The position numbers were made by a program, and so were the translations under genes. DNA of 64,000 nucleotides from a virus, in IMG/VR virus record IMGVR_UViG_3300045995_000345, positions 1 to 64,000 of that record. The stretch is one strand, 5' to 3'. Below the pieces are notes generated by a model that worked only from the letters and a program-made list of their open reading frames with translations, did no database searches and was not told the origin of the DNA. Every line of letters begins with the position of its first letter. Positions within the stretch are counted from its first letter, which is position 1. This document shows, piece after piece, positions 7,122 through 58,149 of the stretch.

Positions 7122-7613
7122 ATGAGTCAACCACACACACATCTGGGTCAGCCGCAAGACATGTATTACTGCTCCGGCTGCAACCAAGACAAACTCAGGA
7201 GCGAGTTCCCGGACACTGGCGTAACATACCCATTCCCCGGACTCTGCAAAGAATGCGCAAGGGTGGCAGCCAACGAACCGTCAACCGATGCGGAGCAACG
7301 CCTTGGCACCATCCGCAAGATGATCGAGAATCAGATGGGGCCAAGAGCCATGCTCGATTTCAGGTCTGAGTTTATTCGAGTGGTGAAACTCCTGCTTGAA
7401 GTTCGCGACATCGCAGCCCGGGGTGAGCCGATGCCGGACTTCTCCAAGGATGAGCCGAAGAGCGAGGTTGTCTGTTCAATCTGCGGACACAGCACAATCA
7501 CCAACGGCGTGGTGATGGGAAGCTGTAACCAGCTCTGCCCGACGTGCGGCACGGTCACCATTCACATCATCGAGCCCATTGAAAGCACGCTGAGAAAGGA
7601 TGCCAATGAATGA
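7122..7613 (+). CDS. hypothetical protein with two zinc-binding clusters
   Basis: CSGC...CKEC and CSIC...CPTC. Confidence 0.6.
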   Translation: MSQPHTHLGQPQDMYYCSGCNQDKLRSEFPDTGVTYPFPGLCKECARVAANEPSTDAEQRLGTIRKMIENQMGPRAMLDFRSEFIRVVKLLLEVRDIAARGEPMPDFSKDEPKSEVVCSICGHSTITNGVVMGSCNQLCPTCGTVTIHIIEPIESTLRKDANE

Positions 7614-10073: not shown

Positions 10074-10243
10074 TTGACAGAATTTAGATGCGTGTTTCAT
10101 TGGAGACGTCCCGCAAATCAGGACACATCGACTAGACCCGATGAAACACACAACGACAGTTCCGAAATGCCAGCCAGCCGGGAGCAGCACGTCCTCGCTG
10201 TTCCGGTCTAGCGGTTGGCTGGCATTTCAGAGTGGTCACCATG
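10074..10243 (+). promoter_or_regulatory. promoter plus structured leader with uORF (copy A)
   Basis: TTGACA at 10074; CTAGACC(10132)/GGTCTAG(10205); 16-bp stem 10164-10179/10213-10228; homologous to 55478-55644. Confidence 0.7.
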
Positions 10244-10921
10244 AGTTCGAGATACGAGAAGAACTGCCCCATCTGCGGCAAGATCTTCGTAGTCGCACAA
10301 AATCTCTGCGCCTGTTCGCGTGATTGCCGAAGACAGATGAACCAACGGTGGGCGAAGGCCAAGCTAGAGAAGCGACGACTCGCCACTCAGTCTCGGCAAT
10401 CGGGCAGCCCATCAATCCAGACTTCCAGACCGTGCAAGAACTGCGGCCGCGACCGCAGGAAGAACAAGATCTTCTGCTGCGTATCCTGCTATGAATCGTT
10501 CCAGAAGAGGCCAAAGACTACGCAGGAACTGGCGGAGATAAAGCTCGCGAAGTCGGAGAAGTTCAGGCGCAAGCGGCAGGCCCGTGGTCAACGCGAGTTT
10601 GAGCTGAACCCCACCCGGTTCACCTACTACCACCACGTCTATCTAAACTCCGATCGGTGGGGGGAACTTCGGAAGCTCAAACTCCAAGAGCGCGATTGCT
10701 GCGCCAATTGCAGCAGCCGGACGAAGTTGCACGTCCATCACTGGGATTACCACAACCTGACCGATGTCCTCCTGATTGATCTGGAAGTCGTTTGCGAGCT
10801 GTGCCACAACGAGATTCACCGCCGGATCGACCGCTTTCCCAAGTCGGAGTGGACCAGATTGAGAGACCTGTTCAGGGAACTCGGAATGGACGGGCTTCCC
10901 ATCAATCCGAAGCACCATTAG
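10241..10921 (+). CDS. HNH endonuclease with N-terminal zinc fingers
   Basis: CPIC...CSRDC, CKNC...CCVSC; YLNSDRW...CANC...LHVHH...VCELCHNEIH. Confidence 0.85.
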   Translation: MSSRYEKNCPICGKIFVVAQNLCACSRDCRRQMNQRWAKAKLEKRRLATQSRQSGSPSIQTSRPCKNCGRDRRKNKIFCCVSCYESFQKRPKTTQELAEIKLAKSEKFRRKRQARGQREFELNPTRFTYYHHVYLNSDRWGELRKLKLQERDCCANCSSRTKLHVHHWDYHNLTDVLLIDLEVVCELCHNEIHRRIDRFPKSEWTRLRDLFRELGMDGLPINPKHH

Positions 10922-10925
10922 AAAC

Positions 10926-11714
10926 TCAGTTTCCATCCTTGGGCAAATCAATTACAGCCGGCGCCGGCAGGTGACTCCTTCCATTTCCATTCGCCACCGT
11001 CACATTTCCGTCAACACGCATGTTGACCATTGGCGACAGCGGCGAGAACTTCGGGCTCCGTTTATTCTGGATCGCTTCCTTCTGCTCCGCGCGCCGCAAC
11101 TCAATCATGGCTGCCGCGATTCCAGCCTGCCGGATCTTGTCGTAGGTATCGAGCATGAGGCCGTAGAGCGTGGCCCTGTCCTGCCTGAGCATCCTCAGCC
11201 TGACCAGCCTTTGGTCAAGGTTCTCTCCGGTCAGTGGATCCAAGGGTGCGGTATCGAGCAAGGCGATCCTCTCCGTTGTTGCCTTGGCTTCAGTCTGGAA
11301 ACTCAGGTAGAGGGACAGGAGGCCACCGCCAGTCATGGCGCCGATCTGCTTGAAGTGTTTGGCGAACAGGTCGGCTTGATTGATGGCGGTCTTGGCTACG
11401 TCTTCGGGAATTCCGATGGAGGTAAGAGCTTCTGCCGTCATGCAGACATTCTCCAAACGCTTCATTGAGGATTCAACGTCGCGAGCTAATGACGCTCCCG
11501 GATCTCTCGCATCCACCGCCGATGCTTTCTCAGCTCTGAGTTGATCGAAGACGGCCTTTAGCTTTGCGTTGTCCATGATCCGCAAGCGTAGCTTCTCCGG
11601 ATTCCTTCCGAGCAATCTAGCCGCCCCCGCTATGGATCCAGACTGAAGCAAAGCCTCCCTTATCTGTAATTGCGTGGTTACTCTAGGAGCTTGCTCTGGT
11701 GTGGCGGTGTTCAT
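10926..11714 (-). CDS. HTH/coiled-coil protein, possible terminase small subunit
   Basis: IREALLQSGSIAGAARLLG (Fis-like HTH) followed by helical region; last gene of the late operon. Confidence 0.45.
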   Translation of the reverse strand: MNTATPEQAPRVTTQLQIREALLQSGSIAGAARLLGRNPEKLRLRIMDNAKLKAVFDQLRAEKASAVDARDPGASLARDVESSMKRLENVCMTAEALTSIGIPEDVAKTAINQADLFAKHFKQIGAMTGGGLLSLYLSFQTEAKATTERIALLDTAPLDPLTGENLDQRLVRLRMLRQDRATLYGLMLDTYDKIRQAGIAAAMIELRRAEQKEAIQNKRSPKFSPLSPMVNMRVDGNVTVANGNGRSHLPAPAVIDLPKDGN

Positions 11715-14700
11715 CTCCCAAACCCCGCAGCGATTGAACGGTAATCCCTTGCCCCACCACCGCCACCGGACATGGAGCTGGATCCGTAGATGTTCACGGC
11801 CCTGCGTTCTGTGCCGAAGAACGGGGTGAGCCCTCCCGTGTTGGCTCGGCTCTTTCGCACCTGCGCTCCGTAGGCGTTGAAGTTGCGGATGGCTGCCGAC
11901 ACTTCGGTTGCGCTGTCACCCAGAGAAGCCAGCATCTTCTGGTACTCGCCAGCGCTGGGGGACTTGTTGAACGTGGAGCGGAGAGGATTCATGCGCTCGT
12001 AAGCTTCAGCCACGTCTGCGTAGGGATCAACCTCCGGGTCAGTTACAGCCTTCAGGCTGGCGACTTCAAGGGCCTTGGAGTACGCCTCGCGGAATGCGGC
12101 CGGGTCGTTGACGTAGGCAGCCAGGACCATGTTTCCCACCCAAGGTTTCACCGGGTTGGGTATGGCGTTGATCATGCCGGCGGCTGAACCCCGGAAGATT
12201 CTCAGGTCAAGTCCCTGTTCCCTGCCGGCCACACGGATCAGGTTGCCCACGTTGATGCGTTCAACAATGCGGCGCTCGGTGTTGTCGAGGTCCAGCATGT
12301 TGTTGATCGCATCAAAGTTCTGGAGGTAACCAGTTCCACCAGCAGCCTGAATGAACTGGCGCCAGGTTGAAGCGTAGGTGGAATTCGACGGGCCTTGACG
12401 CGCCAGCTTGGTGAGCACAGCGCCAAGGTTCATGATGGTGGAGGCGACGAACACCCGGCTGTCCACGCTGAACTCTCGGGCAGTGGACACGTTGAAGATG
12501 GAGTTGACGGGTTCGCTGATGATTCCGAACGTGCCAAGGCGGGAGAACGAATCAAGCAGGGCGAGGGGCAGGTTCTCATCCAGCTTGAACGGAAGCTGGT
12601 TGGGCGCCTTGCCAACGATGTCCTTCTCGTACTCCTTGCGCATCACGGCGTAGGCGATGGTCACTGGAACGATGGCCAGGGTGAATGCTGTGGCGGCGGA
12701 AGCGGCTGCCCTCAAGGATGCTCTACCCTCCGGCTCTCGCGAACTCTTCACCACGTCGGCGGTCTTGATCAGAGCCCAGCCAGTCAGGGGTGAGACAATG
12801 CGGCCGAAGGTATTGTTGAGCGTCCAAGGCGCACGCGTGGTGATGCCCGTGTTGAGCAGCACCTCGGTGTTCGCCAGCGCAATGACGGATCGAATCTGAT
12901 CGAAGGTCAAAGGCTCCGCTCCAGAAAGTCGCTTTCTAGCAGCGTCCTCCAGTTGGATTCCGTTCTTCTCCAGCGTGGTGTAGAAGTACTTGAACGCCCG
13001 ATCGTCCAGCATCAGCCCGCTCAGGTTCTTGCGCGAGAAGTTCGCCGTCTTGGCGCTGAACTTGAAGTTGGGATCCGCTGCATCTGCCGGGTGGTATTGG
13101 AAATAAAGGGCTGCCTTGTTGATCCCGTCGTTCGTGAACTCAAGCCACGTCCGAGCTGCGGCGCGCTGCATGATGATGTTGTTCATGGAGAACGGTGCCC
13201 ACCACTTGAGGGTAGCGGCTGCCGTCTCAACGTTCTTCGGCTTGCCAACCCCAGTGCTCAGGAACACACGCGCTGCCGCGTTGACCCGCTTCGTTACGGC
13301 GCGCACCACTTCACCGGGCACCCTCAGCGGGGATGCCGTGCTTCTCCACGCCACAGCCCAGAGGGACGCCTCCGCTCCAAGCTGCTGCCGATAGCGGTCC
13401 AGCATACTTCTCCACCCACGGCGTTCGGTGAGCGAGTCAAGGTCCGCCGCCCCACCGCTGTTCAATAGGCGAGTGTTCTTGGCGTTCTCCGCGTTCATCC
13501 GCATCTCCCAGCTCATCGCCTGCCACATGCTGTGCATCAACTCGAATGCGTAGTTCTTGTAGTACCCACCGAACAGGACGGACACCGCTTCCTTGCTGAA
13601 CCCGAACTTCCGGAACGCATGGTCAGGCAGTGAGATGTGATCGGACACGGCGGAGGTGACGCCCTGCAGTACGAACCCGCTCATAACGCCAACCATGTCC
13701 ATCAACGTCTGGTAACTCTGACCTCCGCCGCTGTGGGTGCGAATGAGTGAGAAGAGAACGTCCTCGTTCTTTTGGGCGTACTCGAGATTGTAAACGGCAT
13801 TCTCGCGCATCTTCCTCAGTCCAGGCCGATCTCCATTCAGCCCGTTCTCCATGTAATCTTTCGACAGCGCTGGGTTGCTGGTCTTGATCGCCTCTGCCGC
13901 CTTGAAGTCATCCGCCAGCAGCGTCAGTTCAGTCTGGAGTTTCGCCAGGTTGGCCTTCAGGTCTGTGGCTCCAGCTCCGTAGGCATCCTGCTCTGCCAGG
14001 ACGCGGATGTAGTTCGCGTAATCCTTGTGTCCGTAGGTTCGGAAGTTCAACCATCCAGGAGGGAAGTCCTCTCCCTTGCGCGCATCCAGGAAGGCGCGCC
14101 CAATCGTTCTCAAGTCGTTGCCCTGATCTCCTTCGTCCACCTTGGCGACCTTGTAGAGTTCGTCCATGTAATGTTGGAACGTGGCCATGGTCTGGCCTAC
14201 GAAATCCGAGAGTGTATCGGGACTTCCACCAAGGTCAGCGTGCAGCGTCTCGGCAAACTTCAGGGCATCGAAGGTGCCATCGGCGCGACCAGCCGTGGCT
14301 GCTTGGTAGGCTCCCCTCAACTGCGCGTGCGGGGCCATGTCCACAACTCCGCCAACCTCCGGGCCTTTGAAGTTCGTTTGACCGGGCTTGGAAATCAGTT
14401 CGGCAACGAACGTCGTGTTGACTGGAGCGGTGAACCTCGCGTCCAGCACGGCCTGCAACGCTGCCCGATCCTTGGAGTGCAGCAATGCGACGGCGCTCTT
14501 GGTGAGGCCGACGTGTTCGACGGGGGTGGGATTGCCAGCATCGTCTGTCTCGGCTCCCATCCATGGAGTATTCCAGAACAGCTTCTCACTTCCCTTCATC
14601 CGCATCGCGAGAGCCACGGCTGGCCCTGCGGTGTAACGGCTCATGGTGCTCATCACGCCACCGATGACATCGCGGAAGATGACGCGCCCTCCAACCATGA

Positions 14701-17700
14701 CATCGCGGATCTTGAGCTTTATCCCGCGTCGGACGTTCTGAAGATCCATCGCCGCCGCGAAGTTGGCACGGATGTACTTGTCCACCGCTTCCCATGCGCC
14801 CTTTCGCTCCATGCCTGGGAGCGCCTGCACGAACCTCTTTCCGGTCGCCATGAACTGGTCGAGCTGCTGCTCCGGAGTCAGCCTTGGATCGTAGAGGTGC
14901 TGCTCGGATTGGAACAGGCCGAGGATGTTGTGGTAGAAGTTGGCGTGAAACTCAACAGGGTTGTCGATGCCGGTGGCGATCATTGCGGCACGGGCAAGTT
15001 CGTCCACCTTGTAGTAGAGCCGCTCGTTGATCGAGTTGCGAAGCGACTGCTCCCGGTTGTTGTGCGTCACGATCTGCTGCTCGATGGCGCGCGCTGTCTG
15101 CGTTCCGTGTTGCCGGAACCGCGTCCCGATGTCGCCCATGGAACGGAGGATCCAGCCGCCCAAGCCACGCTGAATATTCTCATTCGCGCTGTTCGCTTGA
15201 CGCCCGGCAGCCTCTCTCACCACACGTTCCAGAAAAGCGAATCTCCCTGATCCTTGAGATCCCGGGTGCTCCGCCATCCAGCTCACAATCTTCGTGAGAT
15301 TCTGCTGAATATTCGCGTCGCTGTAGTTGTCGCCATGCTGAACCGTCTGGCGAAACTCAGGCTTCGTGAAAAGATCATCCTCAGTTGTCAGGTTGCTCTC
15401 GGGAACCAAGTAAACCGCGTTGTTCACCCACTTGAACTGCCGGCTTTGTTCTCCGAAGGTGCCTTCCTCCAGGTCGCGCATTCGTTCCAGCTTGCGAATC
15501 TCCTCAGCCTGAATCTTGGAAATGATGTGCCACTCCACATCCCACTGCGAGAGTTGTGCCGCCTGCTTGAGCAGCTTCTCGTTCTCCGCCTTGATTGTGT
15601 CGAGGCGCTTTAGGATTCGGTCGGCGTGAACGAACAGGGTGCCCACGCGGGAGAGCTGGCCCACTGCAAGCGCCCGGGCATCCGGCTTGTTGCTGACCGC
15701 CAGTTTGATCATCTGGTTGATGGCGGTCTTCTGGACACCCTTGTCATCGTAGGCTGTCCGCACCGCCAGGAGATCCATCGCGATCGGCCGGCGTCGTGCG
15801 AACTGGAGAGCCAGGGCAAGGCGAGCTGGGTCGGCTGCGATGTTCCGAGCGTTCGGGTTGGCGCTGGCTGCCGCCGCTGCCTGCACGTCGCCTGGGGTCA
15901 GGGACACCTTGCCAGCGGATGTCAGTGAGACATTTCCCACGGTGGAGTAGTCGATGCCTAGCTCTGCTAGGGCTTGAAGCTGGTCGCCAAAGGCAATCTT
16001 GTTTCCCTCAATCGCTCCAGCCGCGATCCTCAGCGCTTCCTTGAAGCCAGTCTTAATGCCCAAGGCTTCAAGGATGGATTGCGCCCCGGTGCCAGTGGCC
16101 TCGCGCAAGGCGTCCTTCATGGACTTCAGGAACTGGCCGGTCACCACGTCGAGGTTCTGGTAGTTCTGGGTCAGCTCGTAAAGCTCCAGGTTCGATTCGC
16201 TGATGCGCTCGGTGAGCTTGCCTTCGCCGAACTCATGATCGGAGAGTGCCTTGCGCGCCTGCCACCGGGTCCGGTCCTTGTAGTGAATCTCCAGGGCTGC
16301 CATCTGCGCCTTGGGCGCTTCGTTGGTCTGCTCCAGGTCTGCGAACGTGAGGCTGGTAGAAACTGGCTTTCCAGTGGTGCCGTCTTTGGTGAGCGCGCTG
16401 TTGATTGCGGCCTTGATGTCCTCGGCTGGATCTTCCCCGCCTTGAATAAGTGAGGCGAACGAGTTCTGAATCCACTCGGCCTCCGTGGCAACCGGCTTCC
16501 CTGTGGTGGTGACGTTGTTCCCGCTCTTAACGAGGGCGTCGAAGTACTTGGAACGTGCGGCGGCAACCTCATTCGTGACCGCCATCATTCGCTTGGCCTC
16601 GTTCTCGTACTCTCGCGTTGGGCTGATCTCTGTGCGTTCCCCGGCGAGGCCCTTGATCTGGCGGTAGCGCATCTCATCCGCATTCATCGGCCCCGTGTTG
16701 GGTCGCAAGACGCGCCACGCCTTGTCCCTCGCCGCCGCCGCTTCGTCGTAGTTCTGGAGCAACGTGGTGACCAGCTTGTAGGCTTCGTCCGCAACGTTCT
16801 TGTCGCTGGTCAGGCCAACTGCCTTGAGCAGGTTCGCCACCAGGCGCTTGAACGCATCCCACAAGGACAACGATGTCGGGTCACCGAAGTTCGGAGGCAG
16901 CGCAATCTTGGTGAGCTTGTCTCGAAACTCCGGGTCTGACAGCACGGCAACGGCGAACTCATCCGATCCAACCAGACCTTCCGCTGACTGCTGCCACGTC
17001 AGGCCCGCTGCCTTTGCGGCTTCAACCAGTGTGTGCAATTTTTGCACGAACTCCTGTTCGCCAACTGTCAGCGATGCCGGGTTGTTCCTCGCACGCAAGA
17101 GCAGTCGCGAGATGAAAGGATGCAGCGCCTCGTGAACAACTGAGACATGGAAGTCCTCCACGTTCCGAGCGTTGGCTGGGAACACGGTGGCTTCATTGTT
17201 GGCCACGCTGTAAGATCCACCAAGCGGAGTCCCGACTTGAGTCTCTGGAGAGATTGTCAGCTTTGCCTCAGTGACATCCGCTCTTCCGGCAAGGAACTTG
17301 GCTAAGGCAGCCAGTTCCCCACCCGCCTCCGCCACCTTCTCCAAGGCAGCCGCCAGCGTCGGGTAATCCTTCTTCAACGCGGCGATGTTCATCTCGCTCA
17401 GCAACCCGTGCTGAGTGGCTGGCAGCTTGCTCTTGGCCAGTCGTTTGAGATTGAAGATGACGTTCTCCACGGAGTCGGGAAGAAGCTCCGGCGCCGTGAT
17501 CGTCTGCGCATCCAGGTCAACGGCGTCCATCGCGTCTGGATCCAACTGGCGTTCGCGGGATGGCGTGACGGCTTCTTGAGCCACGTCCAGGGCGGTCTCG
17601 ATTCCGTGCGGAGTCCTCGCCTTCGTGATCATGTCGAGGATCTGATCCCTCTGACCATCACTCAACCCGCCGTCTTCGTGCAGACTCAAGATGACGCCAA

Positions 17701-20700
17701 CCGCCTCCGCCTTCAGCGGCACAAGGGCGCGCATCTTCTCCGACATCGCGTCTAGAGTTGCTACGGAGGTGGGGCTTGGTTCAAGTCTTGCACTTGTTCC
17801 GGTCTCACTTGGGGCTTGCGCGGGTTGCGCTGCTGCCGGCGGCGTGCCTTGGCCAACGCCTGCGACAATCCCACCATCAGCAGCATTATCCCGTTGCGAA
17901 TTTCCGGTCGCGCCTTCTGCAATGGCGGAGGAACTTCCAGCATTTGTGTTCTCATTGGAAAGAGCCTTTCTAACTCCATTCCAGTTCGTGATGATGGTTG
18001 GCAGTGTTTCATCCAACATTCGCTGGATCATTGCCCGGTCTTCGATGGAGTCGTAGGAGGCCGCAACGCTTGCCTGAAGTTCTTTCGCGAACTGCTGAAT
18101 CAACTCGGGCGACGTAACGACGTGGTCCTTTTGAAACGCCACGATCTGCGCCACCATCGGCATGTTGTTCTTCACCCAATCAGCAAACCTGAGTTGCTCC
18201 TTCCGGTTCAACGCCTGCTCTGGTGTGAAGTTCCTCGCGTTGACGATGTCTCCGGACGCCGTCCTCACGTTGTCGGTTGAGTATCCGTAGGCGTCATCCC
18301 TTGCCTGCTTCAGTCCACCGAACTCGCCCTCGTAATCAGCCACGCTGCGGATGGCTCGCGCAAGCTGGTTGCGTGGCGACCGCAAGAGCATGGACGAATA
18401 CGGCACGAACCCAGCCTCCAGCAAATCAATCACCCCAACTGTGTCCTTGGCCCCATCACCAATGGCGAATCGGAATTGCAGGTTGGCAATGACTTTGTTC
18501 GCGCGGAGCTTCTTGCTCACCGCGTTCACGTCGCCCTTGGTCTTCTTCAGCGCCTTTCCGAGTTCCGTCAGCGTGACTGTCTTGGGTGAAGACTTCAACG
18601 CCTTGGCCGCTTCCTTTTTCGTAATACCGAAACCCGCCGCCGCCTCTTCCAGCGTGTAGGTGATCGCCCTGTTGCGGTTGTAGGCCAGCGAAAGAATGAC
18701 GCGGCCGGCCGGGGTGATCCAACCAGCAACCCGTCGGCTCAACGAAGAGGACTGCTTGCCCACCGCAACCTGCTTGCCCTTCTCACTTCTCTTGGCTGTG
18801 CCCACCTGGGACTGGGCAGTGAGCAACGTGCCGATCAGCTTCGCGGCGTATTCCTTCTCGCCCTGAGTCTTGGCTTCGTTGTAGAGCTTGTGAGCTTCAG
18901 ACAGATCGTGACCGCCACCAGTGTCGTCCTTCGTGTCGTAGTAACCCGGGAGCTTGGCGATCTTGCGAGCGGCCTCTTCGCTGTCCAAAGTAGCCTGCGC
19001 ATCAGAGGATTCGTCAGGCGTCATTCCTGGCTCGTCACCAGACGTCGGATCTTCCACGCGGCCGAATGCGTTTTCGACTGCGGTGGATCCAGAATCATCA
19101 ACGAGCGAATCACCATGCCCGCGTTGAGACGGATCTTCCGAAGGCTTGGCTGCATCCAGAGAACCATACTCGAACTCCACCGCTGCCGGCCCGATGGCTT
19201 GAACGATGGATTGCTCCTCCGCTTTGAAGTTGGCAATGGCACGCTCCAGCTTTGAGATGCTCAGGATCAGATCAGCGTGTCGGTCAACGAGCGCCTCGGC
19301 GTCCTTGTCAGCCTTCTTCAGCTCGGCAATGAGCGATTCGACCTGCTTGAGTTCAGCCTGCTGGGCAGCCAAGTCGGTCTTGAGATACTCCAGGTTCTTC
19401 TTGCCATCGTAGTTCTCTCCGAGCGCATCGACCTTGGCAACGACGTTGGCGGCGAAACCGAGAGCTTCAGGCTTCAGTGCTTCTTCGACTTTGCGTACTT
19501 CTTTGCCCACGACGGGAGCTTGTCCTTTGACTTCACCTTGGACGGGAGCTTGCTGAACGACGGTGTTTCCTTGGCCCACCGCTTGGCCCACGGTTGGTGC
19601 GTTGAGAATGCGAACTTCTGTTGCGAGGTGCTGAGGAATGGGGGCATTGGATTCCTTGGTTGGTGCTGACTGGCTGCGCGCTTGGATCTTGGCAGCCATC
19701 TCGGCGGGCCTGGGTTGGCGAGACTGACTGAGCCGCTGAATGCGTGCGGCCATATCCGCTGGGCGCGGAGCCTGCGTCTTGAAGTACGTCTTGAGCGCGG
19801 CAACTGCGGCCTTGGGAGTTTCGGGAGGAGAAGCCTGTTGAGCCTCCGATGGAGGCGGTGCTTCCTTGGTAGCGAGCGCTGCGGGTGCAGCCGGCACAAC
19901 AGGTGAAGGCGATTGGGCAACCTCAGCGTTGCGCGTCACGGTCGGGTCACGCATGGCTTCAGCGTAAACCATCAGGTGCGCTTCAACGGGCGTGCCAGCC
20001 GGGATCATCTGCGTGTCCACGGGAACGAACGTAGCGCCAGCCTTGACGAACAGTTCGAGCTTGTTGCCCCCGTCCTTCTGCGGCGTCACCACGGAACGGA
20101 ACAGCACCTTGCCCGTGTCATCCTTGGCTTCGAGGATGCGTGGTGTCAGCGGAACTCCCAGCTTGCGCGATTCGGCCCACGTCAACTGTTGGTTCACGTT
20201 GCGCTGCTTCACCACATCAGGAATCGAGGCTTCTGTCTTGGGATCATATCGAAGCCCCAGCTTGGCAGCCATCTGTTGCAGGTCGGCGCGCGTGAGCGTG
20301 TCCTTATTTAGCAGTTCGGCTACATCGCGAACCTCCGGGCTTCTCTGGTCTTCGGGAACGGACTGAACCAGATCCTTCGCGAACTGGTAGAGCGGCACCT
20401 TGGAGACGGCGGGGCGTTCAGCTTCAGCCGTAGCCGAAACCCCACCCGCACCAGTTTCGCTGGGAACGCTGGCTGGTGCGGGCGTTGATGTCTCGGTAAC
20501 CGGAGGTGCTACTTGCAACTCTTGGGTCCCTTGACCTTGGGCATTTGCTTCTTCGCCATTGGGAGTCTCACCGCCTTTCTCGTTGGAAAGTGACTTTCCA
20601 AGTTCGTCGCTTCTGGCTTGAAGGATCCTGGTCCACTCCTGATTGAAGATTGCTTTCGAGTCTGAGTTGAGTTTCAGGATCTCAAGCTCGACGGCGGGGT

Positions 20701-22111
20701 CGCCGGCAGCCTTGCGCTGCACCAGTAATGCGATGCCGGCCCTGTCAACATCGTAGATGTCCTTGGCTACGTCGCTCCCAATCGTCCCGGTCTTCAGCGC
20801 GTCCGGCGGCGGAGGCGGTTCGTTCGTCGCCTCCTTCTTGGGCGGGGGCTGCTGCTCTCCACGCTTCTTGCCTGTGAACAGTTCGGTAACGGCGGACGTG
20901 GCGCCACCGCCCATGGTCCCGGCGATACCAGAGTTGATGATGTCATCCTTCTCCGCCTGATTCAGTGGAGCCCAAAGCTTGCCCTCGTCATGGTCATGCA
21001 GGAAAGCTCCGTAACGCTGGCCGGCAACGTCAACAAGCGATTGGAACGCCTCAGTGCTCCCTTCCCATGGCACCGTCTTGGCGACCTCTGGGGCGAGGCG
21101 TGTGACGTAGGCGTAAAACGGCTTCTTCAGAGGTTCAACCGCCGCGTCTGTCAGCTCGCGGCCGGCCCTGCCCATTGCCTTGCCCAACCGTCCGACGATG
21201 TAGGTGGGCAGGACTGTATCGGGGACCGCCTTTATGCCACCACCCACCAAGGCGATGTTGGCCGCGTCATCCTGGCTGAGTTCGCCCTTGTTCACCTGAT
21301 CCTGCAACTCCATGAACAACTCGCCGGAGTTCTGCTGCATGGACGCAGCGGCACCACCCGTGAGGTTGCCGATCATCTGGCCGACCGTTGCCGCCTGGCG
21401 AACCGTTGCTGCCCGCAGGAGTTCCTTGGCCGGAGCGCTGAGTGCGTCCTTCAGGATCGTGCCAGCTGCGTACTTCTCGATCTCACCCTTCAGTTCAGCC
21501 GACACCTTCGCCTTCACCAGCGCCTTGAGGGCTCCACGTTCAAACAACCCAGCCGCCGCGCCCGGAATCCCGCCCACGCCAGCACCAGTCGCCGCACCAA
21601 TGGCGGCGCCCGCACCCGCCGCAACCACGGACTCACCAATCGACGGCACCAAGTTGCCAAACTGGTTGGCCGCATAGAGCATCGCCGTGCGCGGCCCGCT
21701 CACGTCACGCCAGTTGGCCACTGCCGGCTGGTAGTAATCCGCCGCCTCTTGCTGTTGCTCCGCTGCCTTGCCGATCAGGGTCTTGGCGATGTTAGTCGCG
21801 CCTAACTTCTGCGCCACCATGCCGCCTGCCCCGTAGGCAAGCGCCTGAGTCTGGTCAATGCCCGCACCCAGAGAACCCTTGAACTCCTGCCACGTTGACG
21901 TGTTGGCAATGCGGTCCTCCTTCTGGATTCGGTCCCAGTCAGCGGCGAAGTCCGGGTACTCCTTGAACACGTCCCTGCCTTGGGCGGAATACTCGGGGGC
22001 CTGAGCGGCGTAGAGCCGTGTGATGTCGTCATCCTTGAGGGCCGACATGTCCTCCGGATTCCAACCCAAAGGGTTGTTCTTCCGAACGAAGTCAACGAGT
22101 TGGTTGGGCAT
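11711..22111 (-). CDS. giant (3466 aa) internal virion/ejection polyvalent protein with zincin motif
   Basis: Follows two ejection-type genes; Ala/Gly-rich N-terminus; VVHEALHP (about 17120-17134) then EFAVAVLSDPEF...SLWDAFKRLV. Confidence 0.75.
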   Translation of the reverse strand: MPNQLVDFVRKNNPLGWNPEDMSALKDDDITRLYAAQAPEYSAQGRDVFKEYPDFAADWDRIQKEDRIANTSTWQEFKGSLGAGIDQTQALAYGAGGMVAQKLGATNIAKTLIGKAAEQQQEAADYYQPAVANWRDVSGPRTAMLYAANQFGNLVPSIGESVVAAGAGAAIGAATGAGVGGIPGAAAGLFERGALKALVKAKVSAELKGEIEKYAAGTILKDALSAPAKELLRAATVRQAATVGQMIGNLTGGAAASMQQNSGELFMELQDQVNKGELSQDDAANIALVGGGIKAVPDTVLPTYIVGRLGKAMGRAGRELTDAAVEPLKKPFYAYVTRLAPEVAKTVPWEGSTEAFQSLVDVAGQRYGAFLHDHDEGKLWAPLNQAEKDDIINSGIAGTMGGGATSAVTELFTGKKRGEQQPPPKKEATNEPPPPPDALKTGTIGSDVAKDIYDVDRAGIALLVQRKAAGDPAVELEILKLNSDSKAIFNQEWTRILQARSDELGKSLSNEKGGETPNGEEANAQGQGTQELQVAPPVTETSTPAPASVPSETGAGGVSATAEAERPAVSKVPLYQFAKDLVQSVPEDQRSPEVRDVAELLNKDTLTRADLQQMAAKLGLRYDPKTEASIPDVVKQRNVNQQLTWAESRKLGVPLTPRILEAKDDTGKVLFRSVVTPQKDGGNKLELFVKAGATFVPVDTQMIPAGTPVEAHLMVYAEAMRDPTVTRNAEVAQSPSPVVPAAPAALATKEAPPPSEAQQASPPETPKAAVAALKTYFKTQAPRPADMAARIQRLSQSRQPRPAEMAAKIQARSQSAPTKESNAPIPQHLATEVRILNAPTVGQAVGQGNTVVQQAPVQGEVKGQAPVVGKEVRKVEEALKPEALGFAANVVAKVDALGENYDGKKNLEYLKTDLAAQQAELKQVESLIAELKKADKDAEALVDRHADLILSISKLERAIANFKAEEQSIVQAIGPAAVEFEYGSLDAAKPSEDPSQRGHGDSLVDDSGSTAVENAFGRVEDPTSGDEPGMTPDESSDAQATLDSEEAARKIAKLPGYYDTKDDTGGGHDLSEAHKLYNEAKTQGEKEYAAKLIGTLLTAQSQVGTAKRSEKGKQVAVGKQSSSLSRRVAGWITPAGRVILSLAYNRNRAITYTLEEAAAGFGITKKEAAKALKSSPKTVTLTELGKALKKTKGDVNAVSKKLRANKVIANLQFRFAIGDGAKDTVGVIDLLEAGFVPYSSMLLRSPRNQLARAIRSVADYEGEFGGLKQARDDAYGYSTDNVRTASGDIVNARNFTPEQALNRKEQLRFADWVKNNMPMVAQIVAFQKDHVVTSPELIQQFAKELQASVAASYDSIEDRAMIQRMLDETLPTIITNWNGVRKALSNENTNAGSSSAIAEGATGNSQRDNAADGGIVAGVGQGTPPAAAQPAQAPSETGTSARLEPSPTSVATLDAMSEKMRALVPLKAEAVGVILSLHEDGGLSDGQRDQILDMITKARTPHGIETALDVAQEAVTPSRERQLDPDAMDAVDLDAQTITAPELLPDSVENVIFNLKRLAKSKLPATQHGLLSEMNIAALKKDYPTLAAALEKVAEAGGELAALAKFLAGRADVTEAKLTISPETQVGTPLGGSYSVANNEATVFPANARNVEDFHVSVVHEALHPFISRLLLRARNNPASLTVGEQEFVQKLHTLVEAAKAAGLTWQQSAEGLVGSDEFAVAVLSDPEFRDKLTKIALPPNFGDPTSLSLWDAFKRLVANLLKAVGLTSDKNVADEAYKLVTTLLQNYDEAAAARDKAWRVLRPNTGPMNADEMRYRQIKGLAGERTEISPTREYENEAKRMMAVTNEVAAARSKYFDALVKSGNNVTTTGKPVATEAEWIQNSFASLIQGGEDPAEDIKAAINSALTKDGTTGKPVSTSLTFADLEQTNEAPKAQMAALEIHYKDRTRWQARKALSDHEFGEGKLTERISESNLELYELTQNYQNLDVVTGQFLKSMKDALREATGTGAQSILEALGIKTGFKEALRIAAGAIEGNKIAFGDQLQALAELGIDYSTVGNVSLTSAGKVSLTPGDVQAAAAASANPNARNIAADPARLALALQFARRRPIAMDLLAVRTAYDDKGVQKTAINQMIKLAVSNKPDARALAVGQLSRVGTLFVHADRILKRLDTIKAENEKLLKQAAQLSQWDVEWHIISKIQAEEIRKLERMRDLEEGTFGEQSRQFKWVNNAVYLVPESNLTTEDDLFTKPEFRQTVQHGDNYSDANIQQNLTKIVSWMAEHPGSQGSGRFAFLERVVREAAGRQANSANENIQRGLGGWILRSMGDIGTRFRQHGTQTARAIEQQIVTHNNREQSLRNSINERLYYKVDELARAAMIATGIDNPVEFHANFYHNILGLFQSEQHLYDPRLTPEQQLDQFMATGKRFVQALPGMERKGAWEAVDKYIRANFAAAMDLQNVRRGIKLKIRDVMVGGRVIFRDVIGGVMSTMSRYTAGPAVALAMRMKGSEKLFWNTPWMGAETDDAGNPTPVEHVGLTKSAVALLHSKDRAALQAVLDARFTAPVNTTFVAELISKPGQTNFKGPEVGGVVDMAPHAQLRGAYQAATAGRADGTFDALKFAETLHADLGGSPDTLSDFVGQTMATFQHYMDELYKVAKVDEGDQGNDLRTIGRAFLDARKGEDFPPGWLNFRTYGHKDYANYIRVLAEQDAYGAGATDLKANLAKLQTELTLLADDFKAAEAIKTSNPALSKDYMENGLNGDRPGLRKMRENAVYNLEYAQKNEDVLFSLIRTHSGGGQSYQTLMDMVGVMSGFVLQGVTSAVSDHISLPDHAFRKFGFSKEAVSVLFGGYYKNYAFELMHSMWQAMSWEMRMNAENAKNTRLLNSGGAADLDSLTERRGWRSMLDRYRQQLGAEASLWAVAWRSTASPLRVPGEVVRAVTKRVNAAARVFLSTGVGKPKNVETAAATLKWWAPFSMNNIIMQRAAARTWLEFTNDGINKAALYFQYHPADAADPNFKFSAKTANFSRKNLSGLMLDDRAFKYFYTTLEKNGIQLEDAARKRLSGAEPLTFDQIRSVIALANTEVLLNTGITTRAPWTLNNTFGRIVSPLTGWALIKTADVVKSSREPEGRASLRAAASAATAFTLAIVPVTIAYAVMRKEYEKDIVGKAPNQLPFKLDENLPLALLDSFSRLGTFGIISEPVNSIFNVSTAREFSVDSRVFVASTIMNLGAVLTKLARQGPSNSTYASTWRQFIQAAGGTGYLQNFDAINNMLDLDNTERRIVERINVGNLIRVAGREQGLDLRIFRGSAAGMINAIPNPVKPWVGNMVLAAYVNDPAAFREAYSKALEVASLKAVTDPEVDPYADVAEAYERMNPLRSTFNKSPSAGEYQKMLASLGDSATEVSAAIRNFNAYGAQVRKSRANTGGLTPFFGTERRAVNIYGSSSMSGGGGGARDYRSIAAGFGR

Positions 22112-51787: not shown

Positions 51788-53137
51788 ATGTCTGAGCAGC
51801 AACAAACCAAAGCACTCTCAACGATCGATACAGCGAAGTCGTTCCTCGCGGACCCGGCGCTCCTGGCGCAAATCAGGGTCGCGTGTTCGCGCACCATGAC
51901 CCCGGAGCGGGTTGCGCGAATTGCCCTCACGGCGGTCCTGTCCTCACCGAAGCTGGGCCAGTGTTTCATGACGAAGCCCGGGAAGGCGTCCATTGCCAAG
52001 GCGCTGATCACGGCCAGTCAGCGCGGGCTGGAATGCGACGGCAGGCAGGGGCACCTCGTTCCGTTCAACTGCAAGCAACCGGACGGCACCTCGGCAATGA
52101 CCGCCCAATTCCTGCCGGGTTACCAGGGCTTGATCGACCTCGCCTACAACCATCCCAACGTCGGCGCAATCTGGGCGGAAGCCGTGTTTGAGAAGGACGA
52201 GTTCGCCTACCGTAAGGGATTGGACCGAGAGCTGAGTCACGTCCCCTACGCTGGCGAGGATGATCCCGGTCCGCTGGTGGCGACTTATGCTGTCTGCGAA
52301 ATGAGGAGTGGATCGAAGGTGTTCGTGGTTCTGTTCCCTCGCGACATCAAAAAGATCATCGCCTTCTCCGCCAGCGCCGCCGGCGAAGATTCGATCTGGA
52401 AGAAGCACCCGGAGTCCATGTGGAAGAAGTCGGCCATTCGTGCCCTGTGCAAGTACATCCCGCAGTCCAACGAGCTGCGCGACCTGCTGAACGACGAAGA
52501 CGAAATTGACCGCTCGATTGGTGGAACTTCCCTTGGCGGATCCTTTGCGGACATGAAGCCGGCGAACGTGACGCCGTTGCCGCAGGTGGGGGATGCGATG
52601 ACGGCCACGCCTCCGGTGGCAGCCACTCCGTTGCCGCCGCAACCCCAACCTCCGGTCGCAGTCACCGCTCCGCCGCCGGTTGCCGAACCTGCCAAGCGAG
52701 GCCCTGGCCGTCCTAGAAAGCCAGTTTCCAGCGACATGCCTACGGATGTCACTCCTCCGGCTGAACCCGAAACCGATGCTGCTCCGTCCGATCCTGCGCT
52801 TCCTCCGGACTCAACTCCTGCTGCTACCGAGCCTGAACTTCCAGCCGAAGACTTCATCAACGTCACCCGCGCCACCGACCCGGCCAGCAACCACCACAAG
52901 CTGATGCTGGCGGTTGAGGGCGTGGACGTCCCGGTCAAGATCACGGATCTCGCCGGGGCTGTAACCACGTCCAGCCGCAAGGCCACGTTCAAAGACTTCC
53001 GCGATCTGGCAATCGGTTCGGGCTGGTTTGGTGAGACCGTTAAGAACTGGCCCTCTGTGCCGCAGGAGATTGCGGACATGCTTGTCGTCAGGCAGAAGGC
53101 CCTGGCGAAGAAACTCGCTGACGCGGCCACAGCCTAA
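51788..53137 (+). CDS. recT: RecT-family single-strand annealing protein
   Basis: MTPERVARIAL, GHLVPF, AQFLPGYQGLIDLA, WKKHPESMWKKSAIRALCKYIP. Confidence 0.9.
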   Translation: MSEQQQTKALSTIDTAKSFLADPALLAQIRVACSRTMTPERVARIALTAVLSSPKLGQCFMTKPGKASIAKALITASQRGLECDGRQGHLVPFNCKQPDGTSAMTAQFLPGYQGLIDLAYNHPNVGAIWAEAVFEKDEFAYRKGLDRELSHVPYAGEDDPGPLVATYAVCEMRSGSKVFVVLFPRDIKKIIAFSASAAGEDSIWKKHPESMWKKSAIRALCKYIPQSNELRDLLNDEDEIDRSIGGTSLGGSFADMKPANVTPLPQVGDAMTATPPVAATPLPPQPQPPVAVTAPPPVAEPAKRGPGRPRKPVSSDMPTDVTPPAEPETDAAPSDPALPPDSTPAATEPELPAEDFINVTRATDPASNHHKLMLAVEGVDVPVKITDLAGAVTTSSRKATFKDFRDLAIGSGWFGETVKNWPSVPQEIADMLVVRQKALAKKLADAATA

Positions 53138-53152
53138 CCCGCTCTACAACCC

Positions 53153-55477: not shown

Positions 55478-55644
55478 TTGACTTCCTGAAATACTCAGTT
55501 ACTCCTTGAGTGAGTCCGAAAGGATTCACATCGACTCAACCCGGTGAAGACAGACACGACAATTCCGAACCTCCCACACGTTGGGGCAAGACGCCAGTCC
55601 TGCCCGGTTGAGCAGCGCGTGGGAGGTTCTGAGGTGTCACGATG
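55478..55644 (+). promoter_or_regulatory. promoter plus structured leader with uORF (copy B)
   Basis: TTGACT at 55478; CTCAACC(55535)/GGTTGAG(55606); stem 55567-55580/55616-55629; uORF 55544-55645 overlaps next ATG. Confidence 0.7.
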
Positions 55645-55830
55645 AAGTTGATATTCAGCAAGCAGGAGATCGCGCAGGCGGTCGAAGTTTACTGGGGCGG
55701 CGAATTACTCAACGCGGCAGAGAATTACACGGAGGGTGAGTGTGGTGTTTTTTACGACATGGAAACCGGGGAAATAACCGCTGAGATTGAGATCACCCAA
55801 AAGTCGTTGAGTGAAAGGAAGGCCGAATGA
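55642..55830 (+). CDS. small acidic hypothetical protein
   Basis: ATGA-coupled to the replication initiator. Confidence 0.6.
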   Translation: MKLIFSKQEIAQAVEVYWGGELLNAAENYTEGECGVFYDMETGEITAEIEITQKSLSERKAE

Positions 55831-56729
55831 GCGCCCCCGCTTCCTTCCCGTTCTACCCCGACGACTTCCTGGCCGGAACCATGGAGATGTCCACTGATGA
55901 GGTTGGAGCCTACATCCGGCTCCTCTCTCACCAATGGAACCGCGGTTCAATTCCGGTTCAAACCGAAAAGCAACAACGGTTGGCTGGGGGCTCAGTCTCG
56001 GCCGACGTAATTTCCAAGTTTGAGGTGTGTGAAGACGGCCTTCTCCGGAACGCGAGGATGGAGTTTGAGCGAGAGAAGCAATGTAAGTATCGTGATGCTC
56101 AAGCACTTAAGGGTCGCCTTAGTGGCCAGGCAAGGCGAACCCCGGTTGAACCCCGGTTGAACCCCGGTTCAGTTTTGGTTGGAACCCAATCGAACCCCCC
56201 CGTCCCCGTCCCCGTCCCCGTCCCAATTGTACAAATACCCAGCAAGCCGGGCGGTGGAGTTTCGGAATTACCGAAAGACGCAGAAGACATCGAGGCTCAG
56301 ATCGACCAGCTCTACTCCGCCTACCCGAAGCACGTCGGCGTAGCGAATGCGAAGAGGGCGATTCGGAAGGCATTGAAAAAGGCGACGTTTGAAGTCCTCT
56401 TCGAAGCCGTCACTGCCTTTGCAGTTTCCCAGGCCAGTAGGTCGGCGGAGACGAAGAAGTTCATTCCCGACCCGGCGACGTGGTTCAACGCGGAACGTTG
56501 GACAGACGACCGCACCACATGGACGGTTGGGCAGAACGGCTCCACGGTCCCGCCCCACAAGCAGCTTGACGCGGTCAAGCTCTCGATCGAGACGCACCCC
56601 GCGAACCGGGAGTATGTCGGCTACGACGAACGGAAGGTCACGCCAGAGTTGAAGACCCAGCTCTCCGACCTTCGGAAGGCGGCAGAGCAGTTGACGCTTC
56701 GGATCGCGAAAGGATCCATCCATGGGTAA
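55827..56729 (+). CDS. phage replication initiator (DUF1376/YdaU-like)
   Basis: FPFYPDDFLAGT...EVGAYIRLL..QW; YPKHVG...KFIPDPATWFNAERW; upstream of dnaB. Confidence 0.85.
   Translation: MSAPASFPFYPDDFLAGTMEMSTDEVGAYIRLLSHQWNRGSIPVQTEKQQRLAGGSVSADVISKFEVCEDGLLRNARMEFEREKQCKYRDAQALKGRLSGQARRTPVEPRLNPGSVLVGTQSNPPVPVPVPVPIVQIPSKPGGGVSELPKDAEDIEAQIDQLYSAYPKHVGVANAKRAIRKALKKATFEVLFEAVTAFAVSQASRSAETKKFIPDPATWFNAERWTDDRTTWTVGQNGSTVPPHKQLDAVKLSIETHPANREYVGYDERKVTPELKTQLSDLRKAAEQLTLRIAKGSIHG
56137..56169. repeat. 3 x 11-bp iterons GAACCCCGGTT (candidate origin)
   Basis: Perfect tandem copies inside the initiator gene; related palindrome GAACCGCGGTTC at 55937-55948. Confidence 0.7.
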
Positions 56730-58149
56730 GCAGTTCCTCAGTGATATGCCCATCGACAGGCTCCCGCCGCACGCACCAGAGGCGGAGCAAGCCGTGATCG
56801 GATGCTGCCTACTCACAAACGACGCCATAGATGAAGTCTTGGAAACTGGACTTTCCAGTGAATGGTTCTATGACCTTCGCTTGCGGGATATGTGGACGGT
56901 GTTGTCTACGATGCGCGCTGCCGGAATTCCCATCGACTTGATTTCGCTTCCGCAGAAGTTGCGCGACGCTGGGAAGCTGGAGGCCGTTGGTGGGATTGCC
57001 TATATCACCGCCCTGATTGACGGAGTTCCGAGCGCAAGCATAGTCGGATACTACGTCGGGATGCTTCGCGATAAGTGGCTTTTGAGGAAGGCTATTGCCG
57101 TCTGCACTGAGCATGTGTCGAAAGCCTACGAGGGTTGCGACGCTGAGGATGTTGTGGCTTCACTTGAACGAGACTCACTCGCCATCCGTGATGACAAGTC
57201 TGACAAGCGCGCCGAGACAATGCAGACCATCGCAAGGCGTGTGGTGGAGAACATCGAGAAACGGATGACTTCCGGTGAGGGAGTTATCAGCACAGGCTTC
57301 ACGGATCTGGACAAGTACACTTCCGGAGGGCTGAAGGATTCCGAGATGTGGATCATGGCGGCGCGCCCGTCACTTGGTAAGACTTCGCTCGCGATGAACA
57401 TCGCCGCTAACGTCGCTGACGCTTTCCGGTCCGAATGGTTATCCTCGCACGCGAAGGAAGAACCCTACGCAGGCCAAAGCGTTCTCGTGTTCAGTTTGGA
57501 GATGACCGCCGAAGCCCTCACTGAGCGCATGGTGTCCAGCTACGCTAGGGTGGGAACCCGAAGGACGGAGGCGTTCAACGAACGGGAAATGGTAAGGCTC
57601 ACCACGGCGGTTGGTGTCGTGTCCAAACTCCCACTCATCATTGAAGATTCTCCAATGACGCTTGGCCGGATTATGGCCAAGGCGCGCCGGCACGTTTCGC
57701 GTGACAACACGAAGGTGATCGTTGTGGATTATCTCCAGTGCATTCTGAGCACCCCCGACGCGCGCTCCCAGGATCGAAGGGTTGAGGTTGACGGGTTCAG
57801 CCGGGGCCTGAAGCAAATGGCGAAAGAGCTGAAGGTCCCCGTGCTGGTTGCCGCCCAGCTCAACCGGGATCTTGAGCGCGAAAAGAACCGACGCCCGCGC
57901 ATGTCTGATTTGCGCGAGGCTGGCGGCATCGAAGCCGACGCGGACTTCATAGGGTTCCTTTACAAGCCGTCATCAAAGGGCGAAGAAGAGGAATCGGATT
58001 CGTGTGCCGTGAACCTGCTCATTGGGAAGCAGCGCAACGGAATGGCCAACGTCGATGTCGCCCTAACCTTCCTCAAACAGTTCACGCGTTTTGAAAGCGC
58101 CGCAAAAGTATGCTCGGAAGACTATCGCCCCACCCACTCGGACCCATGA
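56722..58149 (+). CDS. dnaB: replicative DNA helicase
   Basis: PPHAPEAEQAVIG, AARPSLGKT, FSLEM, VDYLQ, AQLNR, SDLREAGGIEADAD, KQRNG. Confidence 0.95.
   Translation: MGKQFLSDMPIDRLPPHAPEAEQAVIGCCLLTNDAIDEVLETGLSSEWFYDLRLRDMWTVLSTMRAAGIPIDLISLPQKLRDAGKLEAVGGIAYITALIDGVPSASIVGYYVGMLRDKWLLRKAIAVCTEHVSKAYEGCDAEDVVASLERDSLAIRDDKSDKRAETMQTIARRVVENIEKRMTSGEGVISTGFTDLDKYTSGGLKDSEMWIMAARPSLGKTSLAMNIAANVADAFRSEWLSSHAKEEPYAGQSVLVFSLEMTAEALTERMVSSYARVGTRRTEAFNEREMVRLTTAVGVVSKLPLIIEDSPMTLGRIMAKARRHVSRDNTKVIVVDYLQCILSTPDARSQDRRVEVDGFSRGLKQMAKELKVPVLVAAQLNRDLEREKNRRPRMSDLREAGGIEADADFIGFLYKPSSKGEEEESDSCAVNLLIGKQRNGMANVDVALTFLKQFTRFESAAKVCSEDYRPTHSDP

Follow-up and report, generated by a model that had tools for sequence, protein, structure and literature searches.

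Why does a phage genome place related RNA leaders in front of a nuclease gene and in front of its replication genes, and what might such leaders do? The question arises in the DNA analysed here (the window), which comprises bases 1-64000 of the 73,024-bp virus record IMGVR_UViG_3300045995_000345 of IMG/VR, with an estimated completeness of 93%. The record belongs to a phage with few known relatives, which has many structural open reading frames (ORFs) without a PHROG match and also encodes an integrase and a large terminase. Leader copy A (10124-10243) precedes an HNH nuclease gene and leader copy B (55527-55644) precedes the replication genes. Judged from their sequences, A and B are paralogues that belong to an uncatalogued family of structured mRNA leaders found at the head of phage replication operons, and we are nearly certain that this is a real structured RNA family with the pseudoknot described below.

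A first-pass annotation of this DNA had proposed that the two leaders are homologous. This was borne out, as A and B share 79% identity across 129 aligned columns and differ by compensatory changes. Most of the identity lies in unpaired stretches, with ACGACA-N-UUCCGAA and CCGGU being identical between the copies, and the stem sequences are rewritten. The shared blocks that had been listed (ACCCG-N-TGAA, ACGACA-N-TTCCGAA, CCGGT-NN-AGC and TTC-12 nt-ATG) are present in A and B, and the word TTGAC was found at 10074 and 55478, with CACATCGACT beginning 50 and 49 nucleotides (nt) downstream, respectively. The motif words of A and B alone showed no enrichment in the window. A covariance model built from A and B only (R1) detected just these two sites in the entire record. 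The same annotation had placed a promoter ahead of the leaders; this part was not confirmed, since a sigma-70 consensus scan was negative on either strand at A and at B, and TTGAC is thus merely a -35-like word.

Both copies are predicted to fold into stable structures. The folding energy was -58.2 kcal/mol for copy A (z -5.5) and -59.5 kcal/mol for copy B (z -4.5), with 0 of 200 shuffled sequences as low in either case. The common fold begins with a hairpin, P1 (5 bp, 8-nt loop), followed by about 20 unpaired A/C-rich nt and then by P2, in which an inner hairpin and, on the 3' side, a bulge of 7 nt sit on a 17-bp outer stem. At the base of P2, two short helices take up the GAG of the Shine-Dalgarno (SD) sequence, 9 nt upstream of the ATG. 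The P2 bulge and the P1 loop are perfect complements (7/7 Watson-Crick pairs in A and in B), and this pairing makes the pseudoknot. The elements of the two leaders, including an upstream ORF (uORF) in each, are as follows; MFE stands for minimum free energy.

10074..10079, plus strand: TTGACA, -35-like word upstream of copy A, read directly
10126..10143, plus strand: P1 hairpin of copy A, stem CAUCG/CGAUG of 5 bp with the 8-nt loop ACUAGACC, from the MFE fold
10132..10138, plus strand: pseudoknot 5' strand of copy A, CUAGACC in the P1 loop, unpaired probability 1.0
10141..10323, plus strand: uORF of copy A, ATG start, 60 codons, reading through P2 and, out of frame with the HNH gene, past its start
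10155..10237, plus strand: P2 of copy A, from the MFE fold and compensatory changes relative to B; basal pairs 10155-10157/10235-10237 and 10160-10162/10230-10232, outer stem 10164-10180/10212-10228, inner hairpin 10181-10204
10205..10211, plus strand: pseudoknot 3' strand of copy A, GGUCUAG in the 3'-side bulge of P2, unpaired in the MFE fold, unpaired probability 1.0
10230..10243, plus strand: SD-like GAGUGG (10230-10235) and the HNH start ATG(A) (10241-10243)
55478..55483, plus strand: TTGACT, -35-like word upstream of copy B, read directly
55514..55525, plus strand: small hairpin P0 of copy B, just 5' of P1, from the MFE fold
55529..55546, plus strand: P1 hairpin of copy B, stem CAUCG/CGGUG, loop ACUCAACC
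55535..55541, plus strand: pseudoknot 5' strand of copy B, CUCAACC
55544..55645, plus strand: uORF of copy B, GTG start, 33 codons, its UGA overlapping the AUG of the next gene (AUGA)
55558..55638, plus strand: P2 of copy B, with basal pairs, outer stem 55567-55583/55613-55629 and inner hairpin 55584-55605
55606..55612, plus strand: pseudoknot 3' strand of copy B, GGUUGAG in the P2 bulge, unpaired probability 1.0

The first-pass annotation had described a covarying 7-nt long-range pair, and indeed CUAGACC/GGUCUAG in A corresponds to CUCAACC/GGUUGAG in B, with two compensated positions. Its further observations on geometry were confirmed as well: the spacing from the 5' strand to the outer stem is 25 nt in both copies, and both 17-bp outer stems pair despite about nine differing positions, with a G.U in A. 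The outer stem of copy B has one A.C mismatch. In copy A, the uORF AUG (10141-10143) forms part of the 3' stem strand of P1, the MFE fold places the GAG of the SD, and the GUC after it, in the basal pairs of P2, and positions -14 to -4 have a mean unpaired probability of 0.28. In copy B, the uORF GUG (55544-55546) likewise lies within the 3' stem strand of P1, whose pairing is retained through an A-to-G change relative to A. The minimum-energy fold of B lacks P1, as 55530-55535 pairs with sequence past the start codon; folding 55529-55644, which excludes that partner, gave the loop strand 55535-55541 an unpaired probability of 0.97.

The leaders had been suggested to represent an undescribed RNA family, and they are not in Rfam: Rfam 15 (4227 models) gave no gathering-score match in the window, and at E<=10 on A and B it returned chance miRNA- and snoRNA-type matches only. 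There was no match at gathering score in nine related loci and none at E<=0.1 in seven others. A self-cleaving ribozyme or a riboswitch was rejected as an identity, given that Rfam has no match and that no unpaired core is conserved across the family. A full-text literature search found no description of a leader RNA of DUF1376 genes or of a phage counterpart of the IncI pseudoknot, and blastn of the replication region against GenBank phages found no match.

Relatives were found through the DUF1376 replication initiator encoded behind copy B. Strict DNA patterns derived from A and B yielded 5, 2 and 7 loci in IMG/VR, with no true relative among those inspected; the inspected loci (five of the first scan, and L018 and L019) were coding or chance matches, and model R1, run on nine loci of the later scans, found only the typed motif in L015, L018 and L019 and nothing in the other six. 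The initiator has 297 relatives at E<=1e-5. A single initiator protein used as the query gave one viral locus, without a leader match, and a 21-sequence initiator alignment gave 80 viral loci out of 462 relatives. A metagenome scan covered 80 of 266 initiator relatives and produced many further model matches. Contigs of metagenome-assembled genomes (MAGs) gave nothing with the full-length initiator alignment and seven contigs with an N-terminal one, labelled Rubrivivax, Verrucomicrobia (three), Planctomyces, Pseudobdellovibrionaceae and Actinomycetota; one of the seven was matched by the model and another, L104, shows the pairing by eye. These labels do not fix the host, because binning of phage contigs is unreliable. 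The sources are mostly freshwater metagenomes and the phages uncultured.

Model R1 matched one of the 80 viral loci, L057, directly upstream of the initiator gene (24.7 bits), where the loop and bulge pair as UGAGACC/GGUCUCA, a third version of the pairing. With one useful match in 80 loci, R1 was too narrow. A structural descriptor specified an inner hairpin, a 3' bulge, an outer stem of at least 10 bp and a complement of the bulge in an upstream hairpin loop. In 522 kb searched on both strands, all matches with an outer stem of at least 16 bp lay on the gene strand just upstream of replication operons (L023-L030, L037/38, L054/55, L057, L058, L064, L066, L074, A and B), and matches with 10-12 bp stems were scattered over both strands. 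Further variants were recognised by eye in folded upstream regions (the L031 type, L059, L063/65, L075 and L079). By these mixed criteria, about 40 of the 80 viral loci have such a leader; in the rest, the initiator gene lies directly behind another gene. In total, about 30 distinct leaders precede DUF1376 replication operons in viral, metagenomic and MAG contigs, and the operons consist of the initiator gene, sometimes with a small ORF or an HNH nuclease gene before it. P0-like hairpins precede P1 in L057, L074 and the L023 group, and TTGAC was found 33-57 nt upstream of P1 in 12 of the 28 leaders with enough upstream DNA. Just upstream of the leader and the full-length initiator gene of L079 lies a truncated duplicate of the initiator N-terminus (L079:2959-3416, a 95-aa ORF), which looks like a recombination scar at the leader.

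Models built from foreign leaders recovered both copies. R2 comprised six foreign leaders with the pseudoknot not modelled, R3 comprised 15 foreign rows, and neither included A or B. R2 found copy A at full length (10124-10246; 25.5 bits, E 6e-4 in 507 kb). In a cmsearch of the 64-kb window, R3 found copy B (55518-55647; 29.0 bits, E 2e-5) and copy A (27.4 bits, E 5e-5) as its top two matches, the next one scoring 9.4 bits. No model uses MAFFT alignments of divergent members, since these failed to agree with the structure.

The covariation of the pseudoknot, which had been read from two copies, was borne out far beyond them in two alignments, A10 and A11, in which the stems were fitted by the model and the pseudoknot was not. 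In A11 (15 rows), 94.2% of cells were paired over the whole structure, compared with 79.2 +/- 1.0% after shuffling (0/500) and 32-50% when the partner was slid. The P1 helix was paired in 100% of cells, 15 of 26 pairs of the P2 outer stem had changed on both sides, and 6 of 7 pseudoknot pairs had changed on both sides, with 90.2% of pseudoknot cells paired despite a one-column shift in four rows. An RNA on the gene strand is favoured by the many G.U pairs in A11 and by R2 scores that are far lower on the reverse strand (e.g. 143.6 vs 33 bits). In A10 (19 distinct plus-strand rows, aligned by a model without the pseudoknot), a loop-bulge Watson-Crick run of at least 5 was present in 14 of 19 rows (7 in 9 rows), compared with a mean of 2.4 for non-cognate combinations, and 0 of 10000 permutations reached the observed sum. 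The five low rows (A, L074, L116, L067 and L174) had the loop or the bulge misplaced by the model; checked directly, A has 7/7 and L074 8/8 pairs, and inspection by eye shows a complement of 7 nt in L116 and in L067 when the register is shifted. The 30 leaders considered form pairings of 6-9 nt, with 25 different 5' strand sequences among them, with the reservation that in rows L024, L131, L135, L148 and L067 the longest match reported by the script is another pairing and not that of P1 loop and bulge. The family conserves the fold, the pairing and AUGA, and does not conserve the unpaired sequences.

Several points have to be set against this picture of the family. The 29-30 leaders were collected by mixed criteria (model matches, descriptor and eye), and A10 and A11 are alignments fitted to the stems. 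Permutation counts overstate independence, because the rows of the family are related by descent. The E-values of the models are rough, by the tool's own statement. R2 missed copy B at E<=10, and a search of the whole record with R3 returned nothing, unlike cmsearch on the window, a first-look filter being the only explanation offered.

The short ORFs that the first-pass annotation had seen after the 5' strand are present in both copies (ATG in A, GTG in B) and proved to be a feature of the family. Among 29 distinct leaders, picked irrespective of reading frames, 23 contain a frame that opens at an ATG or GTG, 15-47 nt downstream of where P1 begins, and that runs through P2 to a stop at -6 to +1 of the main ATG. 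The overlap is exactly ATGA in 19 of those 23, copy B included. Mononucleotide-shuffled leaders had such a uORF in 14.4% of cases (837/5800). The uORFs of the family are 30-42 codons long and their phase is retained although the inner hairpins span 16-40 nt. Since the uORF peptides are unrelated, it is translation itself that would matter, not its product. The main start reads ATGA in 29 of 30 leaders, including A and B. We consider it quite likely that the uORF is translated and needed. In copy A the uORF is out of phase, because its inner hairpin has one extra bp (2 nt) relative to B, with the fold kept; the uORF terminates (10321-10323) 14 nt ahead of Met33 of the HNH frame (10337), and reinitiation at Met33 would yield a nuclease without the first Cys-rich repeat. 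On the Verrucomicrobiota MAG contig L104 (1360-1510), the ATG downstream of P1 reads in frame into the initiator without an intervening stop, and this 'uORF' may be an N-terminal extension.

The start of the first gene is poorly exposed. P2 ends about 10-20 nt before the gene start across the family, positions -14 to -4 of the main ATG have a median unpaired probability of 0.3 (30 leaders), and several leader groups have no SD at a usable distance. Because the main start is poorly accessible, the first gene should depend on uORF ribosomes. In 29 of 30 leaders the 3' strand of the pseudoknot is unpaired (probability >=0.5), and its distance to the AUG is 25-47 nt in all but L067 (80 nt). As this strand is not buried, the pseudoknot and P2 can coexist.

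A second helix was found in much of the family. It can form between the uORF start codon with up to 12 nt preceding it and the 18 nt adjoining the bulge on its 5' side. This helix is 6-8 nt long in 15 of 27 leaders (cognate mean 5.41, non-cognate 3.65; 0 of 5000 permutations reach the sum), shows clear compensations within subfamilies (e.g. L031/L039/L090), and is exemplified by L024:434-517 and L031:2868-2930. In L057 (2795-2824) and L133, UGAGACC occurs twice, in the P1 loop and overlapping the uORF AUG; with the 5' strand so duplicated, the bulge could pair with either copy.

The above findings suggested a mechanism of uORF-dependent translational coupling across a self-locking fold, which we favour by a small measure. 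According to this model, the first gene would not be initiated on its own, its SD and start being at or just past the base of P2, or an SD being absent. Ribosomes translating the uORF would melt P2, terminate on the AUGA and reinitiate. Initiation at the uORF would itself be throttled: in A and B its start codon sits in the P1 stem, which the loop-bulge pairing would stabilise, and in much of the remaining family the segment before the uORF AUG would pair beside the bulge, so that the 3' half acts as a built-in cis antisense. This half would kiss the P1 loop first and then cover the uORF start. Ribosomes would gain access chiefly to transcripts that are nascent or have just been opened, or as long as another ribosome keeps the lock open, and the outcome would be a small, capped dose of initiator and nuclease per transcript. 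In copy A, translation of the uORF would only open P2 or feed reinitiation at Met33, with no AUGA coupling. The P1-stem start codon of A and B and the second helix suggest that it is the uORF start that the long-range pairing closes, and not the gene start that it opens. We infer that the leader gates dose-sensitive genes, as the first-pass annotation had proposed.

The weakest step of this model is that the pseudoknot is a lock rather than an activator, to which we give slightly better than even chances. Lock and activator cannot be told apart from sequence, because the 3' strand is unpaired in 29 of 30 leaders. Other observations that weigh against the model concern the second helix, which is absent in A and B, and the uORFs. 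These have no recognisable SD and sit in G-poor, A/C-rich spacers; the uORF stops beyond the start in A (+80 nt), L037 (+35 nt), L039 (+23 nt) and L116 (+11 nt), and L063 and L067 have no uORF by the criteria used.

A bolder version of the model can be stated. The leader may be a self-contained, antisense-free timer in which a 7-nt private address permits a burst of expression from nascent transcripts and the same code acts in trans; we regard this as a long shot. Action in trans is conceivable because every phage, and each of the two copies here, carries a different address. If this were true, co-infecting phages or prophages with matching addresses would shut off each other's replication genes, a phage counterpart of plasmid incompatibility.

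Could the same parts work in another way? One alternative is a true IncI/IncB-type circuit, in which the pseudoknot holds the start open after passage of the uORF ribosome and an antisense RNA or a decoy competes by binding the P1 loop. The parts are those of ColIb-P9 (an upstream hairpin loop, an inhibitory hairpin and a leader peptide that terminates at rep; PMC4705826, PMC8053102), a private 7-nt loop in each leader is what would be expected of a specific antisense target, and in L057 and L133 the P1 loop could compete for the bulge with the second copy of the 5' strand over the uORF AUG. The exposure of the 3' strand in 29 of 30 leaders speaks against such a circuit, since the pseudoknot and P2 are compatible and not alternatives. 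In addition, the P1 stems have just 4-6 bp, no Rfam antisense family matches, and no sigma-70-like minus-strand promoter was found at A or B, the consensus of which may not be that of the host. We therefore hold this circuit to be doubtful. Transcription attenuation, with P2 as an intrinsic terminator that a uORF ribosome close behind RNA polymerase would block, draws on the U-rich tract (>=6 U in 8 nt) that follows P2 in 10 of 30 leaders (L023, L024, L054, L031, L090, L059, L063, L126, L121 and L067). Such a tract is missing from 20 of 30 leaders overall, A and B among them, where at most 4 and 3 U, respectively, occur in 8 nt after P2. A terminator scan was negative for the plus strand of A and of B, with the reservation that P2 exceeds its loop limit, and the AUGA overlap points to translational coupling. 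Attenuation is accordingly very improbable as the general explanation, and the U-tract subset, which includes neither A nor B, may add it to the coupling.

The fold might instead be an operator or an aptamer, bound by a phage protein such as the initiator or by a small molecule, with the uORF incidental. Autogenous control is common for initiators, the fold is compact and pseudoknotted and lies beside the SD, and A and B have identical unpaired stretches. Across the family, however, the unpaired sequences are not conserved, which leaves no common pocket or protein-binding motif; the uORF keeps its phase in spite of the variable inner hairpins, and Rfam 15 has no matching riboswitch family. This makes an operator or aptamer improbable. 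A DNA element of the replication module, such as an origin, a set of iterons or a palindromic operator, would account for the position next to the initiator genes and for the long inverted repeats. The frequent G.U pairs would be mismatches on the opposite strand, the model scores depend strongly on the strand, the element always lies on the coding strand immediately before the start codon, and a covarying loop-bulge pairing with an in-phase uORF has no meaning at the DNA level. A DNA element can be dismissed for practical purposes. Translational coupling through the uORF is the reading with which we proceed.

The genes that such coupling would serve in the window are listed here.

10241..10921, plus strand: HNH endonuclease, 226 aa, with N-terminal Cys-rich repeats (PHROG 119, E 3.6e-5)
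55631..55830, plus strand: 62-aa ORF of unknown function, ATG at 55642, SD GAGG at 55631-55634
55827..56729, plus strand: DUF1376 (YdaU-like) replication initiator/primosomal protein (Pfam PF07120, E 2.2e-9; PHROG 9327/270)
56722..58149, plus strand: DnaB-like replicative helicase (Pfam DnaB_C, E 3.8e-73)

The stop of the 62-aa ORF (55642-55830) overlaps the start of the replication initiator gene, and the 62-aa ORFs that follow the leaders in B and in L152 show no similarity to each other. The HNH gene under copy A is the last gene of a plus-strand block. Its start is likely 10241, a correction of the gene caller's Met33 (10337); the public gene call begins at that ATG (10337) and gives 194 aa. 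Apart from the gene in L116, the only match of the HNH protein among 5.8 billion proteins was the window's own product, and a search for related loci with the HNH protein found none. In L116 (588-1204), a 159-aa HNH gene stands between a leader and the DUF1376 initiator gene, its TGA overlapping the ATG of the latter, and the encoded protein is 33% identical to the window's HNH domain over 81 aa (E 5e-4, pairwise). Given this operon arrangement, HNH nucleases belong to the leader-controlled module in at least one other phage; the nuclease of the window instead has its own paralogous leader. Three further features of the window were noted. A second, weak HNH-like ORF (7122-7613, plus strand; PHROG 2255, E 6e-4) lies just before the integrase gene, a single ORF of 3466 aa (11711-22111, minus strand) lies within the phage structural block, and a recombination module formed by a RecT-like annealing protein and a DUF2800/PD-(D/E)XK exonuclease (51788-54274, plus strand) lies just upstream of copy B.

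These results describe a well-supported new structured RNA family, suitable for Rfam. The leaders also provide a natural set of about 25 orthogonal 7-nt loop-bulge pairs and a testable case of phages capping the dose of an initiator and of an HNH nuclease.

How does this leader compare with known systems? In the c4-icd-ant operon of bacteriophages P1 and P7, an antisense RNA from the same transcript (C4 RNA, RF01695) occludes the ribosome site of a small ORF, the translation of which is needed downstream. A cis-encoded antisense over the start of an upstream ORF would be common to both. C4, in contrast, is processed and acts as a separate RNA, and there is no sign of processing here; the target genes are other ones, and Rfam gave no match to C4. 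In the maturation gene of MS2, a long-distance interaction restricts translation to nascent RNA: the start is open until the distant complement is made, and the dose is set kinetically. This is an analogy for the proposed timing only, as MS2 is a different type of virus, its maturation gene has no uORF coupling and there is no sequence relationship.

The closest parallels are found in plasmids, and the comparison with IncI/IncB plasmids made by the first-pass annotation is apt as an analogy (PMC4705826; PMC8053102). The dependence on uORF ribosomes proposed here follows a logic that is established for the rep genes of ColIb-P9 and IncB (PMC4705826; PMC8053102). In I-complex and IncL/M plasmids (RLP/repY-repZ of ColIb-P9, repB-repA of pMU720), the translational coupling of rep depends on a pseudoknot (PMC4705826, PMC8053102, PMC10286972). 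Both systems have an initiator gene with a weak start masked by a stable hairpin (predicted in our case), an upstream hairpin loop that pairs with a distant downstream sequence, and a leader peptide whose translation is required (probably so in our case) and which terminates at the rep start, as in B and in 23 of 29 leaders and not in A (+80). The 3' strand of the plasmids comprises 4 nt buried in the inhibitory stem by the SD, and their pseudoknot can form only once the leader-peptide ribosome has opened that stem, whereas the 3' strand of the phage leaders is an unpaired bulge of 7 nt. The two systems therefore differ in topology and probably also in the sign of the effect. The phage initiator is a DUF1376 protein (an HNH nuclease under copy A) and not RepZ or RepA, the host replicon is a phage rather than a plasmid, the phage starts are mostly AUG and not GUG, and there is no sequence or Rfam relationship. 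No antisense Inc RNA/RNAI was found at A or B by the sigma-70 promoter scan, whose consensus may not be the host's. In plasmid R1 (tap-repA/CopA) and in IncI2 plasmids (repR-repA), Rep synthesis requires a short leader ORF that overlaps the rep start (PMC8053102). Those systems use a trans antisense RNA (together with PcnR in IncI2) and no pseudoknot, whereas the pairing here is intramolecular and covaries.

By analogy, the phage leader is functionally like the leaders of the I-complex and IncL/M plasmids, yet it is no member of that group. Control of rep initiators by a leader peptide and a pseudoknot is a textbook plasmid mechanism, familiar from a small number of enterobacterial Inc groups. 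What is new here, as far as sequence comparison can tell, is a non-homologous RNA family that has the same parts list, arranges it in a different topology and is widespread in uncultured phages.

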